64,000 bases of DNA from Nitrospirota bacterium (GTDB taxonomy: Bacteria; Nitrospirota; Thermodesulfovibrionia; Thermodesulfovibrionales; SM23-35), in assembly GCA_040756135.1 (NCBI GenBank), contig JBFLZS010000007.1:3072-67071 (forward strand). Reading direction: 5' to 3'. This document shows, in pieces, positions 57 through 39,650 of this stretch. Under the pieces are notes generated by a model that ran no database searches, was not told the DNA's origin, and was given only the letters and a program-made list of their open reading frames with translations. Every line of letters begins with the position of its first letter. The first letter of the stretch is position 1. The position numbers were made by a program, and so were the translations under genes.

Positions 57-469
57 GGTCTGTCCATAAACTTGCAATTTGTCATTGTCCGGCTTGACCG
101 GACAATCCAGACCCTGTTGAAAAGACTGGATTCCCCGATCAAGTCGGGGAATGACGGATAACTTATTAAGGGTCTCAAAATTGAATTTACATAAATCATA
201 AAATCTCCCCTCACCCCTCTTTGCTAAAGAGGGGTATAAATCCTCCCTTTGGCAAAGGGAGGTTAGGAGGGATTTTATAAATAATGTTGTCATTAGAGCC
301 TGTTGCACAAATGGCAAAATCGGGCATTCTGTCATGCTGAATTTATTTCAGCATCTAATAAAATCAAGGGGTTATGAGACCCTGAAACAAGTTCAGGGTG
401 ACAAATAATGATTTGTGCAACAGACTCATTATTATGAGACCATTAATATTCTTAGTTTATGGACAGAAT
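57..469. mobile_element. Triple nest of MITE-like elements: family A outer element interrupted by a family B element, itself interrupted by a family E element
   Basis: Outer inverted termini ggtctgtccataaac (57-71) and gtttatggacag (455-466). Family A twin hairpins at 81-155, family B core at 200-276. Family E has 15-bp TIRs gcctgttgcacaaat (298-312) and atttgtgcaacagac (411-425). Confidence 0.7.
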
Positions 470-983: not shown

Positions 984-1385
984 CTATCTCAGAAGAATAC
1001 TTATGATTGCTCCAACCACGGAACCAATAAGGGCAGAAAGTGGAAGGATGTATTTGATGAGAAGTCTTCTTAATTCAGAAATCTCATTTCTAATTCCAGA
1101 AATCTCGTTTCTGATTCCAGAAATCTCGTTTCTGATTCCAGAAATCTCGTTTCTAATTCCAGAAATCTCATTTCTGAGATTCGTCTCAACTGTATCTATC
1201 TTTATATCTAATTGCTTAATCTCATTTCTGAGATTCGTCTCTATCTCCCTTGCAATCTCTTGCAGGTCAGCCTTTGTAGCAGCTCCACGCTGGATAGAAT
1301 CCTCGATAAAGGTGATTATGGCAGTTGCTTCTTCATCGCCGAGTTTTGGAGCAATCTTTTTATATACATCTACCGCAGTAAGCAT
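984..1385 (-). CDS. Coiled-coil, C-terminally membrane-anchored protein (DUF1640-like) with a five-fold RNEISGI heptad array
   Basis: 133 aa. Has an ATKADLQEI motif typical of DUF1640-like proteins, five RNEISGI heptads, and a hydrophobic C-terminus ILPLSALIGSVVGAIISILL. Confidence 0.7.
   Translation of the reverse strand: MLTAVDVYKKIAPKLGDEEATAIITFIEDSIQRGAATKADLQEIAREIETNLRNEIKQLDIKIDTVETNLRNEISGIRNEISGIRNEISGIRNEISGIRNEISELRRLLIKYILPLSALIGSVVGAIISILLR
1076..1187. repeat. 21-bp tandem repeat (about 5 units) inside the DUF1640-like gene
   Basis: Unit cagaaatctc[a/g]tttct[a/g]attc repeats head to tail from 1076. Each unit contains the small palindrome gaaatctcatttc. A related copy lies at 1217-1241. 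Confidence 0.9.
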
Positions 1386-2518: not shown

Positions 2519-3769
2519 TTAAAATCCGAAATCCTTCAAAAGGTCATCAACGTCAGCCTGCGATACTTTCTCGTGAATTAATACCTCCGTCTTGCCATGT
2601 TCAATCTTGACGCCGAAGGTTGTTACCAATCTCACGAGCTCTTCTTCTATATCTCCCACAAGTTTGATGACCCGTTTTATGGTCTGCCCTGTAATGTCCT
2701 GAAAGGATTGAGTCGTGAGTATTTCCGTCAGATCATCCTCGAGTGAATTCTTAAAATTTTTAAGATAATTTACTGAATCTGCCGGCTCTTTTATATTTCT
2801 TATATGTGAGGAAATTTCATCCATACTCAGTATATATTTTTCGACTATCCCTAACGTCTTGTTTGCGGCCTCTTCTGTCTGATCCATGACAAACTGGAGC
2901 CTGTCAATAGCGTTGGGCATTTCCATCATTGCCATATTTTTGAGTTTAGGGTCAATGGCCTCCTTAAAACTTTTAATGGAGTCGTGAAGCTTTCTTGTAA
3001 TCTTACCCACCTCCTTAAAGAGGTCGCCCTGTCCTTTTTTGATGATATGCTGAATGGCATCGTCCGCTTTTTCATAATCCTGGACTGATAAGGCATCAAT
3101 AAAGTTGACGATGTCGTCAAATATTAGGTATCTGGGGTCGTTAGAGTCTATTCCCCTTTGTTCAAAAAAAGTCTTCGTATCGTATAGCTCCGTTACCTTC
3201 ATTTCTCCAGCCATTGTCTGAACTGTCTTTTCCACTTCAACCTTATCACCCCTTTCCTGAATATCAACAACAAAATCCTCAAAAAGACTCATATCATCGA
3301 GGGGGAGGAGTTTTTTTGTATCAAGAAGGACAACAAGTCTGTCAGGGAGTTTAGCAACCCCCTTGACCTGCTCCACATGGCCGTTTAAGAAACTTTCAGG
3401 AGGTTCTATGGATGATTCTTCTATGTTGATGACGCCGGTGATTCCGTCAACAAAAATGCCGAAGGTTATTTTTCCTGCGGCAATGACGATCACTTTATTA
3501 CTTTCAAATCCCCCCTCGCTCCCCTTTGACCCCTCTTTGTCCCTCTTTAGTAAGGGGGGAATTAAAGGGGGGTTGGGAGGATTATTTAAATTTACGAGCT
3601 TCTTTAGATTGACTATAGGGATGATGTTTCCTCTGATGTTTGTGATTCCCTCTATATATGGTGGAGATTGGGGCATTCTGGTTATGGAAGGTAAATTAAT
3701 TATTTCACGAACCTTCAGTATAGGGATCGTGTATTCATTACTATTAAGATTAAATCCAATATATTGCAT
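2519..3769 (-). CDS. CheW-CheZ fusion protein (coupling domain plus CheY-P phosphatase domain)
   Basis: N-terminus is CheW-like (YIGFNLNSNEYTIPILKVREI..IEGITNIRGNIIPIVNL..VVLLDTKKLL). C-terminus is CheZ-like (SFQDITGQTIKRVI and terminal SQADVDDLLKDFGF). Start placed at the ATG at 3769, preceded by GGAGGA; the ORF track offers 3784. Confidence 0.85.
   Translation of the reverse strand: MQYIGFNLNSNEYTIPILKVREIINLPSITRMPQSPPYIEGITNIRGNIIPIVNLKKLVNLNNPPNPPLIPPLLKRDKEGSKGSEGGFESNKVIVIAAGKITFGIFVDGITGVINIEESSIEPPESFLNGHVEQVKGVAKLPDRLVVLLDTKKLLPLDDMSLFEDFVVDIQERGDKVEVEKTVQTMAGEMKVTELYDTKTFFEQRGIDSNDPRYLIFDDIVNFIDALSVQDYEKADDAIQHIIKKGQGDLFKEVGKITRKLHDSIKSFKEAIDPKLKNMAMMEMPNAIDRLQFVMDQTEEAANKTLGIVEKYILSMDEISSHIRNIKEPADSVNYLKNFKNSLEDDLTEILTTQSFQDITGQTIKRVIKLVGDIEEELVRLVTTFGVKIEHGKTEVLIHEKVSQADVDDLLKDFGF
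3506..3583. repeat. Family B-prime palindromic element inserted in frame in the CheW domain
   Basis: aaatcccccctcgctcccctttgacccctctttgtccctctttagtaaggggggaattaaaggggggttgggaggatt, translated as NNPPNPPLIPPLLKRDKEGSKGSEGGFES. Confidence 0.8.
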
Positions 3770-3784
3770 ATATCCTCCTTTCAA

Positions 3785-9728: not shown

Positions 9729-9789
9729 ACTATACCTAAACGTTGCATAAAATTATTAAGAGTTTCATAATTGAATAGACATTATTTAG

Positions 9790-9866
9790 AAAATCTCCCC
9801 TCGCCCCTCTTTGCCAAAGAGGGGTATGATTCCTCCCTTTGGCAAAGGGAGGTTAGGAGGGATTTT
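9790..9866. repeat. Family B double-hairpin element (core)
   Basis: aaaatctcccctcgcccctctttgccaaagaggggtatgattcctccctttggcaaagggaggttaggagggatttt. Flanked by imperfect outer inverted repeats (cataattgaatagacatt ... atgtgcatactataatgag). Confidence 0.85.
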
Positions 9867-9913
9867 ATGATTATTATGTGCATACTATAATGAGACGATT
9901 AATATCTAAAATC

Positions 9914-10000: not shown

Positions 10001-10738
10001 TCACGTCAGAGAGGGAGCATGATTCAGCTTTGCCTTGAGCCTGATAAGGGCCTGGCTATGAAGCTGACATACTCTTCCCTCTGTAAGTTTTAGCGCCTTT
10101 GCTATCTCCTTCATCGTCATTTCATCCCAATAGTAGAGTGATAGAATGAGTTTTTCCTTTTCTGGAAGCTCATTGATAAGAACTGCAAGCACCTCCCTTT
10201 TATTGTTGTCTTCGAATACCTCAAGAGGACTTTTGGCATTAGGGTCTGGTATACATTCTGTAACGTCCAGACCGCTCTCTTCATACTTTTCGTTGAAATC
10301 CTCGAATCTCAATGTCACCCGGGAGTTTGCAATCTGTAATATCCTGTAATACTCATCAAGTAATATTCCGAGAGACCTTGCAACCTCTTCGTCTTCTGGT
10401 AATCGGCCAAGCTCTTTTTCAAGTTTAAGATGTGCTTTTTTGATAGAGTCAATCTTCTTCTTCATGGACCTGGGTATCCAGTTGTGTGCCCTCAGTTCAT
10501 CAAGCATTGCACCCTTTATCCTGAACTGGACAAACGTATTAAGCTTTACCCTTCCTTTGTTGTATCTCTGAAGGGCATCTAAGAGGCCTATTATTCCGAC
10601 ACTGGTGAGGTCGTCAACGGTTAGCTGCGGAGGTAATCTCCACGCTAATCTGTAGGCTGTATATTTTATGAACGGCAGAAATTCCTTGATGATCTGTTCC
10701 TTTCCTTCTTCGCTTATTTCTGTTTTATAGGTAATCAT
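10001..10738 (-). CDS. fliA: Flagellar RNA polymerase sigma factor (sigma-28)
   Basis: Region 2 (DDLTSVGIIGLLDALQRY), region 3, and region 4 HTH (MTMKEIAKALKLTEGRVCQLHSQAL). Positioned after flhF-flhG. Confidence 0.9.
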   Translation of the reverse strand: MITYKTEISEEGKEQIIKEFLPFIKYTAYRLAWRLPPQLTVDDLTSVGIIGLLDALQRYNKGRVKLNTFVQFRIKGAMLDELRAHNWIPRSMKKKIDSIKKAHLKLEKELGRLPEDEEVARSLGILLDEYYRILQIANSRVTLRFEDFNEKYEESGLDVTECIPDPNAKSPLEVFEDNNKREVLAVLINELPEKEKLILSLYYWDEMTMKEIAKALKLTEGRVCQLHSQALIRLKAKLNHAPSLT

Positions 10739-10764
10739 CTCATAATTGAATAGACATTAATCAA

Positions 10765-10841
10765 AAAATCTCCCCTCACCCCTCTTTGCCAAAGAGGGGT
10801 ATGATTCCTCCCTTTGGCAAAGGGAGGTTAGGAGGGATTTT
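10765..10841. repeat. Family B double-hairpin element (core)
   Basis: Near-identical to 9790-9866 by eye. Occupies the flhG-fliA spacer. Confidence 0.85.
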
Positions 10842-10895
10842 CTGATAATTATGTGCATACTATTTCGAGACTGCTAATAGATTGAGCTCCTCCGA

Positions 10896-11744
10896 TTATG
10901 CCTGTTTCATTTTCTGTAACGAACTGGCAGATAAGAGATTGCCTAAGAAAAACTGCAAGGTCCCTTTCACTTTGCTGTTTGAGTCAGAGAACTTTGATGC
11001 GATCTCAGTAAACTTCTGAGACGCGATACTGTTAGGATAGATCTCAACAATGGCCCTCTGCTCCTTTACTGCCCTCTGTATAGAACTGTCGAAGGGGATA
11101 CATCCTATGTAATCAAGAGATATGTTTAAAAATTTCTCGGCAACTATTGAGAGTCTTCTGAAAACCTCAAATCCTTCCTCTGAACTCTTGACAAAATTCA
11201 CGAGGACACGGAATTCCTTTTCCTGATATCTGGTAAAAAGAACCTTGATCAGGGCATAAGCATCTGTGATTGCTGTGGGTTCAGGAGATGTTACTACCAC
11301 TATCTCCTGCGCAGCGATACAGAAAAAAGCTACATTCTCAGATATGCCTGCAGCGGTGTCTATGATAAGAAAATCGATGTCGTCATCATATAAATCAAAG
11401 CCCTCCAGCAATCTCAGCCTCTGAAACTCATCGAGAGATGTTAATTCCTGAACGCCTGAACTGGCTGGCAGTATCTTTATCCCGCGTGGACCTTCAATAA
11501 CAATATCCTTTAATGTCATCTTTCCGTCTAACACATGCTTGATGTTGTAACGCGGTGTTAATTGAAATAAAATATCTATATTGCTTAATCCAAGGTCAGC
11601 GTCTAAAATCATTACATTCTTGCCGCTCTTTCTTATTTCCAGGGCAATGTTTGCTGCGATGTTGGTCTTTCCTACACCACCCTTTCCACTTGTAATAGCT
11701 ATCGTCCTTACGCACTTTGTCTTCTGCCGGTTCTCGATCAACAT
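10896..11744 (-). CDS. flhG: MinD/ParA-type ATPase FlhG (YlxH)
   Basis: Deviant Walker A IAITSGKGGVGKT. Positioned directly after flhF, with a 7-nt overlap. Confidence 0.88.
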   Translation of the reverse strand: MLIENRQKTKCVRTIAITSGKGGVGKTNIAANIALEIRKSGKNVMILDADLGLSNIDILFQLTPRYNIKHVLDGKMTLKDIVIEGPRGIKILPASSGVQELTSLDEFQRLRLLEGFDLYDDDIDFLIIDTAAGISENVAFFCIAAQEIVVVTSPEPTAITDAYALIKVLFTRYQEKEFRVLVNFVKSSEEGFEVFRRLSIVAEKFLNISLDYIGCIPFDSSIQRAVKEQRAIVEIYPNSIASQKFTEIASKFSDSNSKVKGTLQFFLGNLLSASSLQKMKQA

Positions 11745-12868
11745 GTATAGCTCCTTTTTCTTAAAATGAGACTGGTGAGTTTATCCGGTGTAATAAATTC
11801 AATGTCACCGGGAACCTTCTGGCCGGTTGTTACAAATGCAACCGGTTTCTGATATATGAGGAGCAGGTTATAAAGAGTTCCATACCGTACAGCTTCATCA
11901 ACTTTTGTAAAGGCAATATAGTCAACAGGCAACATTCTATAAAACCTGTATGCATCTATCATGAATTCATCATCAGAACTCGCACTCATGAGGAGATGAA
12001 GCTCTACGGGAACCTTTATCTGACATGCCGACAGTATCTCATTAATATATGACTCATCTCGCGGGTTTCTTCCGGTGGTATCAATAAAAATAATATCCCT
12101 GCTTTCCGAGTATCGTATGAGACACTCTTCAAGTTCTTTTCCTTGAGAAACGATCGAAAGCGGTATGCCCATAATCCTCGAATAGATCCGCACCTGTTCA
12201 ACAGCTCCTATCCTGTAAGTGTCAAGGTTGACCATCGCTGCTTTTTTGCCCTCTTGAATTGCAAGGGCAGAGAGTTTCGCAATGGTCGTTGTTTTGCCCA
12301 CGCCTGTTGGACCGATGAGCATAACAGCCTTCTTGTTAGTATTTATTGGCTTCACCTTTATATCATTCGATAGTAATGAAGGAATCTGGCTCAGATCTTT
12401 AGCTTTTTCACACAGACGGAGGGCGAATTCTTCACGTATCGATCTTTTTATGAGAAAATGCAGTATCATTCTTTTTTCAGGAGGTAATGAGAGGTTATAG
12501 CCGGTATTCTTCATGTTTTCTATAATCCCCTTAAGGCTGCCAATCTCATTTTTAATATCATCAACCAGTGTAGAAGAAAGCAGTTTAGAGCTCGAAGTTC
12601 GGAATTCGGAGTTTGCAATCCCCCCTTGCCCTCCTTTTTCAAATCCCCCCTTACCCCCCTTTTCCAAATCCCCCCTTACCCCCCTTTTTAAAGGGGGGAT
12701 GGGGGGATTATATCCTGAGTCATAATCAACCGCTGCAGTGACCTCAACAAAAGGTCTGATACCTCTTTTTTCTTCCGATGATAGTATTATTGCATCCTCA
12801 CTGAGTTCTTTTTTGATTAGGTCAAGGGCATCAGCAAAATTCCTTGCTTTGAATTTCTTAATCTTCAT
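11738..12868 (-). CDS. flhF: SRP-type GTPase FlhF
   Basis: NG-domain motifs LIGPTGVGKTTTIAKL, DTTGRN and FTKVDE. The N-terminal B domain carries a repeat insertion. Confidence 0.9.
   Translation of the reverse strand: MKIKKFKARNFADALDLIKKELSEDAIILSSEEKRGIRPFVEVTAAVDYDSGYNPPIPPLKRGVRGDLEKGGKGGFEKGGQGGIANSEFRTSSSKLLSSTLVDDIKNEIGSLKGIIENMKNTGYNLSLPPEKRMILHFLIKRSIREEFALRLCEKAKDLSQIPSLLSNDIKVKPINTNKKAVMLIGPTGVGKTTTIAKLSALAIQEGKKAAMVNLDTYRIGAVEQVRIYSRIMGIPLSIVSQGKELEECLIRYSESRDIIFIDTTGRNPRDESYINEILSACQIKVPVELHLLMSASSDDEFMIDAYRFYRMLPVDYIAFTKVDEAVRYGTLYNLLLIYQKPVAFVTTGQKVPGDIEFITPDKLTSLILRKRSYTC
12617..12709. repeat. Family B-prime palindromic element (left arm triplicated) in frame in the FlhF B domain
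   Basis: Three copies of aatcccccctt[g/a]cccc..tttt.c, then aaaggggggatggggggatt. Translated as NPPIPPLKRGVRGDLEKGGKGGFEKGGQGGIA. Confidence 0.85.
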
Positions 12869-30365: not shown

Positions 30366-30677
30366 TTATACCTGCATCCTCATGATCTCTTCATAGGCGC
30401 TCAACAGCTTATTCCTCACCTCAACCATCAAATTAAAAGACATGTCTGCTTTCTCCATAGCTATAATCGCCTGGGTTATATCACCGCCTGACGCCAATTC
30501 TTTGACAGCTTTTTCAGCATCGTTCTGCACCAGATAAATCTTACCAACGGCCTCATGCAATATATCGTCAAATCCCTGAGCTGAAGCCTTGCTGTCAGCC
30601 TTAACCTGTAATCCCCCCTCGCCCCCCTTTAGTAAAGGGGGGGTGGTGGGATTATTCGCAATCCTCATATCAGACAT
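30366..30677 (-). CDS. fliE: Flagellar hook-basal body protein FliE
   Basis: C-terminal AIIAMEKADMSFNLMVEVRNKLLSAYEEIMRMQV. Positioned upstream of fliF. Confidence 0.85.
   Translation of the reverse strand: MSDMRIANNPTTPPLLKGGEGGLQVKADSKASAQGFDDILHEAVGKIYLVQNDAEKAVKELASGGDITQAIIAMEKADMSFNLMVEVRNKLLSAYEEIMRMQV
30610..30653. repeat. Family B-prime 44-bp palindrome in frame near the FliE N-terminus
   Basis: aatcccccctcgcccccctttagtaaagggggggtggtgggatt, translated as NNPTTPPLLKGGEGGLQ. Confidence 0.85.
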
Positions 30678-30769
30678 TATTGTCCCTCCAATTTAAGAGT
30701 CTTTATTTAGATTTTTAAAATATTTTTATGTCTTTCTTTGTGCCCTCTGTGTTCTCTAGTGGTTAATTA

Positions 30770-30903
30770 CTGTCTGTGTATAAACTAATAATTAAGTTAT
30801 CCGTCATTCCCCGACTTGATCGGGGAATCCAGTGTTTTCAAAGACCTATGGATTGTCCGGTCAAGCCGGACAATGACAAACCCCGACTTTATACACAGAC
30901 TCT
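30770..30903. mobile_element. Family A MITE-like element, full length (good reference copy)
   Basis: ctgtctgtgtataaac ... gtcattccccgacttgatcggggaatccag ... ggattgtccggtcaagccggacaatgac ... actttatacacagactct. Confidence 0.85.
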
Positions 30904-30929
30904 AATTAAGTTTTTGTTCTTACCGGGCA

Positions 30930-36267: not shown

Positions 36268-36379
36268 GAGGATAACATCTGGAATTTAAAGTAAATTTTC
36301 TTTTCCTGTCAAAATAATGACTTCCGGGAAGGGCCTATGAAGTTAATAACAGACTCATAATTGAATGTACATTTATTAT

Positions 36380-36486
36380 AAAATCTCCCCTCCCCCCTCT
36401 TTGCCAAAGAGGGGTATTACACACCCCTACACCCCTCAAGAGGGGATTATTCCTCCCTTTGGCAAAGGGAGGTTAGGAGGGATTTT
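36380..36486. repeat. Family B element with an extra internal hairpin
   Basis: As in the other copies, plus an inserted acacacccctacacccctcaagaggggatta. Confidence 0.8.
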
Positions 36487-36493
36487 ATAAATA

Positions 36494-37909
36494 TTATCTG
36501 TGAAACTCTATATTTTTTTTCTTGAGTTTTTCTATGAGGGTTGTCCTGTTTAGCCCTAAAAGTTCTGCGGCCTTGTTTTTTATGCCGCCTGTTTTCTCAA
36601 GTGCACTCTGAATCAACTTCCTCTCCATATTCTCTAACACTGAATTGAGGTTGATCCCGGCATCAGGCAAAACAAATTCTTTGAAGGTGTGATCAGGCGC
36701 CTTTACAAAGTAAGATTCTTTAACCATTTCAATTCCTGTTTCTTCATGAAACTTCTCGGGAAGATCTGAAACCTTCACCACATTACCACTTACAAGAATT
36801 GTAAGTCTCTCTATAAGATTTTCCAGCTCCCTGACATTACCTGGCCACCGGTATTTGAGAAGGCAGTCCAATGCCTCGGAAGAAAACTTAAGTGGTTCCC
36901 TTTTTCTCCGCTTAGAAAATTTGTTAATGAAATGATCTATTAAGAGCGGAATGTCTTCAACCCTTTTTTTCAGTGATGGTATGTGAATTGGTATGACATT
37001 CAGCCTGTAAAATAAATCCTCTCTGAATTTTCCTTCTTTCGTTGCCTTTTCGAGGTCCTTATTCGTTGCCGCAATGATCCTTACGTCTACCTTTATTGTC
37101 TTTACTCCCCCTACACGTTCAAATTCCATCTCCTGTAATACCCTTAATAACTTTGCCTGTAAAGATGGGTCCAATTCGCCTATTTCATCAAGGAAAAGCG
37201 TCCCTTCATGAGCAAGTTCAAAACGACCAGCCCGTGTAGCAATAGCACCGGTAAACGCACCCTTTTCATGGCCAAAGAGTTCAGACTCCAGAAGATCTCT
37301 CGGAATCGCAGCACAATTAAGCGGCACAAAGGGTTTCTGGGAGCGGGAGCTATTATAATGGATAGTCTTTGCAATAAGCTCCTTTCCTGTACCGCTTTTT
37401 CCGGTAATAAAGATTGTACTGTCAGTATCAGCCACCTTTTCTATCATTTCAAACACCTGCTGCATCCGGGGCGAATCACCAATCAATCCTTCGAAGTCAT
37501 ATTTTCTTTTTAGTTGCTTCTTCAGCATGAGATTCTCTCTCTGCAATCTCGATACATTTATAGCCCTGTTTATGATGATCATTAATTCATCAAGCACAAA
37601 AGGCTTTGTGACATAGTCAAAGGCTCCTAATTTCATGGCATCAACTGCAGTCTGGACACTCGCATAAGCAGTAACGACAATGCCCGGCGTGTTTATATTG
37701 AAGGCGCTCAATTCCTTTATGACATCCAATCCACCCATCCCCGGCATGATAAGGTCTATTAAAAAAACATCGAACTTTTCTTTTTTAAGTAAATCTATGC
37801 CGGCTTGACCACCTGAGGCAGTAGTTACTTTATAACCCTTTTCTTCTAAAAAAACCTTTAATGAATCCCTAACCGATTCGTCATCATCAATAATCAGGAT
37901 ATGATTCAT
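36494..37909 (-). CDS. Sigma-54-dependent response regulator (NtrC family)
   Basis: Receiver (ILIIDDDESVRD, IDLIMPGMGG), AAA+ domain (GKSGTGKE, GAFTGA), C-terminal HTH (NKAAELLGLNRTTL). Confidence 0.92.
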   Translation of the reverse strand: MNHILIIDDDESVRDSLKVFLEEKGYKVTTASGGQAGIDLLKKEKFDVFLIDLIMPGMGGLDVIKELSAFNINTPGIVVTAYASVQTAVDAMKLGAFDYVTKPFVLDELMIIINRAINVSRLQRENLMLKKQLKRKYDFEGLIGDSPRMQQVFEMIEKVADTDSTIFITGKSGTGKELIAKTIHYNSSRSQKPFVPLNCAAIPRDLLESELFGHEKGAFTGAIATRAGRFELAHEGTLFLDEIGELDPSLQAKLLRVLQEMEFERVGGVKTIKVDVRIIAATNKDLEKATKEGKFREDLFYRLNVIPIHIPSLKKRVEDIPLLIDHFINKFSKRRKREPLKFSSEALDCLLKYRWPGNVRELENLIERLTILVSGNVVKVSDLPEKFHEETGIEMVKESYFVKAPDHTFKEFVLPDAGINLNSVLENMERKLIQSALEKTGGIKNKAAELLGLNRTTLIEKLKKKNIEFHR

Positions 37910-38287: not shown

Positions 38288-38387
38288 TATGTGGAAATTT
38301 TTTCCTCATATCTTTGAACATTGCTGTTTGACTCTTAACGAGATATTTCAATATTAACAGACTCATAATTGAATGTACATTTATTAT

Positions 38388-38464
38388 AAAATCTCCCCTG
38401 CCCCCTCTTTGCCAAAGAGGGGCTTTATTCCTCCCTTTGGCAAAGGGAGGTTAGGAGGGATTTT
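38388..38464. repeat. Family B double-hairpin element (core)
   Basis: aaaatctcccctgccccctctttgccaaagaggggctttattcctccctttggcaaagggaggttaggagggatttt. Confidence 0.85.
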
Positions 38465-38547
38465 GTAAAACTAATGTAGTTATTATTATGAGAACATTAA
38501 TAAGTTCCATTTTTTACGAACGTATCTATTATGTATCTTTTTCAGAT

Positions 38548-39605: not shown

Positions 39606-39650
39606 AATCCCCCACTCCCCCCCTTTAGAAAAGGGGGGGAGTGGGGGATT
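39606..39650. repeat. Family B-prime 45-bp palindrome, non-coding copy in the motA-motB spacer
   Basis: aatcccccactcccccctttagaaaagggggggagtgggggatt. Confidence 0.85.

Follow-up and report, generated by a model that had tools for sequence, protein, structure and literature searches.

Introduction

Palindromic repeats that lie within protein-coding genes have been described in Rickettsia, where the palindromic elements RPE-1 to RPE-10 are about 100–150 bp long and account for 44 insertions in R. conorii, nearly half of them in ORFs (PMC10969869). REP sequences seldom overlap coding regions (PMC12306157), and intragenic REPs are also known (PMC3733652). A third group that bears on the present case is the DUF559 family of nucleases, which falls in the Vsr-like PD-(D/E)XK group together with a group I intron homing endonuclease (PMC3424549).

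Here we examine a palindrome in the flagellar gene fliE of a Thermodesulfovibrionales genome (G000), starting from a 64,000-nt stretch of its DNA that we refer to as the window. Rickettsia palindromic elements and intragenic REPs appear to be the closest functional analogues of the family to which this palindrome belongs. No description of the repeat family, or of a link between DUF559 and repeats, was found in the limited collection of literature searched.

A palindromic element in fliE

The gene and the element occupy the following positions of the window:

30366..30677, minus strand: fliE coding sequence, 103 aa (PF02049, alignment to PDB FliE chains, AF2 and homologue lengths)
30610..30653, plus strand: 44-nt G6/C6 palindromic element (nhmmer 50.1 bits, E 8e-13; fold; reading frames)

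The ORF at 30366..30677 encodes FliE. PF02049 matched residues 25–103 (E 4.2e-24; score 84.9 bits, cut-off 22.4), the alignment to PDB FliE chains begins at residue 31–33 (1.6e-5), and the gene stands in a flgB-flgC-fliE-fliF operon with FlgC and FliF as neighbours. The start codon has a GGAGGG Shine-Dalgarno sequence upstream, and the N-terminus ahead of the element, MSDMRIAN, agrees with MSDIKI.G, which is conserved among homologues. The palindrome is therefore part of a genuine coding sequence.

As an earlier note on this DNA had reported, a 44-nt palindrome (aatcccccctcgcccccctttagtaaagggggggtggtgggatt) is located at window 30610–30653 inside the N-terminal part of the minus-strand, 103-aa ORF. 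Its description there as a palindrome of perfect type needs correction: the left arm has 21 nt and the right arm 20 nt, forming 19 pairs with three interruptions. The plus orientation was set by the asymmetry between a 3-nt and a 2-nt spacer. In gene sense, read on the minus strand, the element supplies FliE residues 9–23 as N-PTTPPLLKGGEGG-L. As DNA it folds at −15.6 kcal/mol (z = −4.65), and shuffles of the window gave an expectation of 0 matches to its 21-nt core. An Rfam scan of 12 kb around the fliE site returned nothing near gathering score and no family match.

A dispersed repeat family

The genome contains 172 exact copies of the 21-nt core and none of a reversed control pattern, and an nhmmer profile run over the whole genome recovered 726 loci, 229 of them with E <1e-5. 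Oriented copies give a 44-nt consensus, AAT-C6-TCR-C6-TTT-NNN-AAA-G6-AT-G6-ATT; variants of 45 nt exist, and one subfamily has lengths of 52–57 nt. Information content falls to background right outside the 44 nt, with flanks informative for 1–3 nt at most.

Genes were assigned with a simple and crude ORF and codon-usage caller (3292 genes, 83% coding DNA), by which 147 of the 202 strong full-length copies (73%) lie in ORFs, 14 straddle gene ends and 41 are intergenic. Robustly internal copies, separated by 30 aa or more from either end of an ORF of at least 300 aa, number 108. Copy density is 50 per Mb in coding DNA and 70–94 per Mb in non-coding DNA, 1.4–1.9 times higher. Copies show no strand bias relative to the host gene (76 same, 71 opposite, p = 0.74). 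In-ORF copies score higher than intergenic ones (median 51 vs 45 bits), which may partly reflect a seed drawn mostly from genic copies. The genome-wide scan of coding ratio, reading frames and strand bias that the earlier note had proposed thus describes a dispersed DNA family with copies in both coding and non-coding DNA, not a motif confined to these genes.

The loop triplet occurs in both complementary forms among 78 distinct 44-nt copies (AGT 21 and ACT 13, TCT 12 and AGA 5, GCT 5 and AGC 5), and which form is present is independent of the orientation given by the 3-nt and 2-nt spacers, a flip-flop heterogeneity. Stem covariation is uninformative because the pairs are almost invariant. A search for target-site duplications with k = 1–6 at several offsets detected none of 2 nt or more, while a 1-nt identical flank was enriched (115 of 179 copies vs 78 expected). 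In one subfamily (TTCAG), ATGAA-like 5-mers on both sides were no better matched than shuffled pairs, and target preference or element sequence would account for them as well as a duplication. Beyond this genome, the exact 33-nt pattern was found in 74 stretches of viral contigs; blastn of the consensus against PLSDB plasmids gave no match, possibly through the low-complexity filter.

We consider it likely, on these sequence comparisons, that the palindrome in fliE belongs to a short, hairpin-forming and non-autonomous repeat, one spreading as DNA through this Thermodesulfovibrionales genome and its relatives. With C6 and G6 runs around an AT-rich loop, the repeat is open in three reading frames and is read as a Pro/Gly loop. 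Movement between alleles may occur through break repair or through homologous recombination, with short flanks carried along.

Allelic history of the fliE copy

The closest relative of G000, the genome studied here, is L034, whose 96-aa FliE lacks the element. A FliF tree places G000 as sister to the element-free L034 (support 99/99), with G002 and L032 in a separate clade. Comparison of the operon alignments delimits a patch around the element:

30576..30665, minus strand: patch of ~90 nt (element plus 11 nt 5' and 34 nt 3', gene sense) with an excess of mismatches relative to L034
G000 vs L034 mismatches: 7/11 in the 5' flank (fliE nt 13–24), 14/34 in the 34 nt 3' of the element, 46/676 in the rest of the alignment
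G000 vs G002 mismatches: 3/12 in the 5' flank, 6/34 in the 34 nt 3' of the element, 138/675 in the rest of the alignment

Relative to L034, mismatch rises from 6.8% to 41–64% in the flanks (Fisher 8e-8); relative to G002, the element flanks are neither more nor less diverged than the remaining operon. A sharply bounded patch of this kind, with a history of its own, points to allele replacement by recombination, rather than bare insertion or excision, as the source of the presence/absence difference between G000 and L034. The replacement could have brought the element into the G000 lineage or removed it from that of L034.

Three other accounts of the fliE difference were considered and set aside. 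A single ancestral insertion common to G000 and G002 is at odds with the FliF tree, in which the sister of G000 has no element, and recent import of the patch from the G002 lineage finds no support in its divergence from G002, which equals that of the remaining operon. An assembly artefact is unlikely, given that the element occupies the same fliE site in the independent assemblies G002, L032 and L033, and is also argued against by the stretches common at the patch borders, which are shorter than assembly k-mers.

A second locus offers a clean comparison of filled and empty sites. A DUF362/4Fe-4S protein (C30:27751-28926) has 391 aa with the element, against a homologue mode of 372 aa (+19 aa), and its DNA holds exactly 57 added nucleotides between ...GAA and CTT..., consisting of AGT, the 44-mer and TTCAGGTGAG. 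The flanks match those of a filled allele at 27/27 nt, compared with 7/27 mismatches to the closer empty allele. The DUF362 site appears to show a weaker form of the fliE flank pattern, which is thus seen at two loci in all.

The FliE spacer

Within FliE, the element lies in the spacer separating the conserved N-terminus from the alpha2/alpha3 helical core. The AF2 model places helices at residues 31–62 and 67–102 and has no confident structure for residues 1–31 (pLDDT <50). FliE length is otherwise narrowly distributed: of the 120 best homologues, 85 have exactly 96 aa, 115 have 93–98 aa, and five exceed 98 aa. Two of these five (P0017 and P0061) owe their extra length solely to N-terminal extensions ahead of the conserved MSxxKI start, so that the only spacer-lengthened proteins among the 120 are element carriers (the present FliE with 103 aa, that of G002 with 102 aa and P0003 with 110 aa). 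The 98-aa P0006 protein appears, by eye, to hold a decayed element copy at the same place (NASIPSVVKGGQGGI).

Genetic work on Salmonella fliE bears on this region. Deletion of codons 15–28 or 18–31 abolishes motility, revertants of the deletions carry duplications that restore spacing, proteins of 100–107 aa are functional, and no point mutations were recovered in the middle section (PMC8546590). Because of these genetics, we regard the spacer that received the insert as sensitive to length and insensitive to sequence (PMC8546590), and by analogy FliE with the element would stay functional for this reason.

The carriers themselves suggest an adjustment of length. The 110-aa form (P0003) looks like a clean addition of 15 aa minus one native codon, and in the 102- and 103-aa forms 7–8 further codons are missing; loss of native linker codons would explain why FliE of G000 is only 7 aa above the 96-aa norm. 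Two relatives with 95.4% identity differ by coding indels within the element and nowhere else in the 2.65 kb compared. Judging from the sequences, element indels and codon loss in FliE may represent trimming back toward a functional length.

Candidate partner genes

We compared two kinds of gene as possible partners of the repeat. Related hairpins stand on either side of each DUF559 gene of the genome; at the six loci, a hairpin of the family lies within 120 nt at 8 of 12 ends, against 4.3% for ordinary small genes (P ~5e-9). The arrangement is a cassette, [C6-TTT-NNN-AAA-G6-NN-G6-ATT]-gene-[AAT-C6-NNN-C6-TTT-NNN-AAA-G6], in which the brackets enclose three-quarter hairpin copies, and a hairpin-gene-hairpin cassette with the same flanks is found in two other genera. 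The 44-nt element results when the right end of the cassette is joined to its left end over the common inner hairpin. Core and DUF559 counts are correlated among 31 relatives (Spearman 0.56, over non-independent genomes), with exceptions in both directions (G030 combines 18 cores with a lack of DUF559; G015 lacks the core and has 4 DUF559 matches), and a DUF559 gene is nearby in just 1 of the 74 element-holding viral-contig stretches. We know of no role for DUF559 as a transposase. We read the link as a physical association that offers a candidate mechanism, and the partner enzyme of the family is probably the small, Vsr-like DUF559 nuclease, not a RAYT transposase.

A bolder proposal, possible in our view and on balance doubtful, is that the G6/C6 hairpins and the DUF559 nuclease together form an undescribed selfish system that spreads by break-induced copying. 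The nuclease would recognise the hairpin with its mismatched spacers, the 44-nt element would represent the joined ends of the nuclease cassette, and break-induced copying with short flanks would spread copies into genes and between alleles. If true, copying of this kind would account for the loop flip-flop, for the indel hot spot and for the recombinant patch in fliE.

It is improbable that the repeat is an ordinary REP/REPIN family set in motion by a genome-encoded RAYT (Y1 tyrosine transposase). The genome does hold six Y1_Tnp loci, intragenic REPs are on record (PMC3733652), and the element shares with REPs a short, GC-rich, imperfectly palindromic form, many copies and the lack of a long target-site duplication. 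However, no family copy lies within 600 nt of any of the six Y1_Tnp genes, the terminal GTAG or CGTC tag is absent (the element ends in AAT...ATT), and 73% of copies lie within genes, where REPs are rarely found (PMC12306157).

Reading frames and host proteins

The hosts of in-ORF copies include aroC (chorismate synthase), valS (ValRS), nrdJ (class II ribonucleotide reductase), carA, and genes for RecJ and an SNF2 helicase. With FliE as query, valS-like and other ORFs were matched by virtue of the element and nothing else. The CarA sequence on either side of the insert can be aligned to E. coli CarA, and the protein is 15 aa longer than in the closest element-free relative, G001. In AroC from 23 relatives, five genera have element-derived sequence at one loop and the others do not.

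The fliE hairpin could instead have been co-opted as a cis-regulatory structure, 22 nt into the CDS, that tunes fliE translation or mRNA stability. The fliE mRNA segment has a folding energy of −36.5 kcal/mol (z = −2.9), its hairpin lying just 3' of the start codon, and relatives too have an element-derived hairpin at this position. Yet over 130 unrelated ORFs hold the same element, at positions spread over their whole length, so that no role specific to fliE is needed; 95%-identical relatives differ strongly here (a 24-nt indel), the closest relatives manage with no element, and the hairpin matched no Rfam family. We attach little probability to such a role.

How a palindrome can enter so many genes was partly anticipated in the earlier note, which held that the C-run/G-run structure yields a Pro-rich then Gly-rich peptide in either orientation, and that this may explain spread into coding DNA without stops. 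The first part agrees with our results, in that both orientations are open when AAT is read as a codon, giving NPPSPPFSKGGMGG and NPPIPPLLKGGEGG, and 103 of the 147 in-ORF copies are read in this way. A third open frame of the consensus gives IPPHPPLVKGGWGD, and the remaining three of the six frames contain stops. The second part stands in a restricted form: three open frames are necessary and not sufficient, since genic copies, read as a loop of ~15 aa (Pro-Pro...Lys-Gly-Gly), are also found where whole codons were added and where the protein has a variable loop or spacer.

Within the copies, 79% of Pro codons are CCC (16.5% elsewhere in the genome) and 69% of Gly codons are GGG (18% elsewhere), a codon bias that indicates the conserved thing is the DNA rather than a protein motif. 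Disruptive copies are scarce, with at most 55 outside ORFs, though half of the frames and two thirds of the lengths would break genes. This scarcity suggests that the host genes are under selection and that we may regard genic copies as translated rather than removed from the mRNA. The remaining alternative, a protein-level PPxPP...KGGxGG motif selected, for example, as a flexible linker or binding site and arising by convergence or domain shuffling, would fit the ORF majority of copies, their closer match to the consensus and a Pro/Gly-rich peptide resembling linkers, but it is highly improbable and largely refuted by one DNA sequence giving three different peptides in three frames and two orientations, by the 41 intergenic copies, by synonymous positions fixed as CCC/GGG against genome codon usage, by unrelated enzymes as hosts with inserts in variable loops, and by orthologues that have no insert.

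Other repeats in the window

Three further family copies lie in the window, where the flagellar and chemotaxis hosts were recognised by Pfam matches:

12617..12709, plus strand: compound array of three left arms and one right arm, in frame in flhF (11738..12868, minus strand)
3507..3583, plus strand: compound, partly decayed copy, in frame within a CheW domain (host ORF 2519..3784, minus strand)
39606..39650, plus strand: intergenic 45-nt copy between motA and motB

The flhF array is read as NPPIPPLKRGVRGDLEKGGKGGFEKGGQGGI, upstream of the SRP54-type GTPase domain. ORF 2519–3784 fuses its CheW domain with a CheZ phosphatase domain.

Several repeats of other kinds were also observed. Between flgC and fliE (window 30730–30908) stands a composite, MITE-like repeat of ~180 nt with two hairpins, of which the window holds at least five copies; it is missing from L034 and L035, where the spacer is 71 nt, a clean presence/absence difference. 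A related double-hairpin family, AATCTCCCCTCGCCCCTCTTTGCCAAAGAGGGG...CCTCCCTTTGGCAAAGGGAGGTTAGGAGGGATT, occurs at window 164–314, 9754–9904, 10729–10879, 36344–36500 and 38352–38502. The hairpin that comes first in this family also stands immediately 3' of DUF559 genes, both in this genome and in other genera. About five copies of a 21-bp tandem repeat (TTCTGATTCCAGAAATCTCGT) occupy window 1067–1177.

A second in-frame repeat type, encoding SQKSKV or EVRSQKSEVRSQ-like peptides in carA and other hosts, often adjoins the palindromic element. In carA (G000:C76:141-1340), 12 extra residues relative to E. coli CarA are of this SQKSKV or EVRSQKSEVRSQ-like kind. One DUF559 gene, L074 (G018:C34:173950-174750), itself holds an in-frame copy of a related element, read as DFYCP-IPLNPPFIKGDGAGF-VELDGG.

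Significance and comparison with known systems

If our reading is correct, a free-living lineage shows a phenomenon like that of the RPEs in Rickettsia, at greater scale and with far shorter units. Translated selfish DNA would be part of over 130 genes, those of core enzymes among them, and four flagellar or chemotaxis loci of the window hold copies (the one at motA/motB being intergenic). Together these genes would show, as an experiment of nature, where proteins can accept 15-aa Pro/Gly loops, and the FliE spacer agrees with Salmonella genetics in this respect. The data also provide a candidate function for DUF559, a widespread orphan family, and a warning that such repeats make proteins longer and give rise to misleading similarity among proteins that are not related. 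New here are the genome-wide table of frames and strands, the reading of the FliE spacer in light of Salmonella genetics, the recombinant patch and the clean 57-nt empty site.

The element resembles Rickettsia palindromic elements as a palindromic repeat found in frame in unrelated, often housekeeping, genes and in non-coding DNA too, and as one read as extra peptide segments at positions compatible with protein function. It differs in its unit of 44–45 nt (about a third of an RPE), its ~200 strong copies with 73% in ORFs, its host lineage of free-living Nitrospirota and its candidate partner gene, DUF559. Since length and host lineage differ from the published description (PMC10969869), we treat the element as an analogue of RPEs and not as a member.

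With REP/REPIN sequences it has in common short, GC-rich, imperfect palindromes in tens to hundreds of copies, occasionally in frame in genes (PMC3733652, PMC12306157), and the absence of long target duplications; unlike them, it has no GTAG or CGTC tag, is not preferentially extragenic, and is associated with DUF559 rather than Y1 genes. As regards MITEs, the arms of the element are inverted repeats, and identity of the flanks is enriched at 1 nt only.

A final likeness is to homing endonuclease genes of the Vsr/PD-(D/E)XK group (PMC3424549), in that a small nuclease gene here stands between copies of the dispersed sequence. At two loci, fliE and more weakly DUF362, presence/absence alleles appear to differ by short co-varying flanks, as repair-mediated copying would predict. 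In contrast to homing endonuclease genes, there are ~200 dispersed copies with no gene of their own, no intron or intein is involved, and the DUF559 protein is a predicted nuclease.
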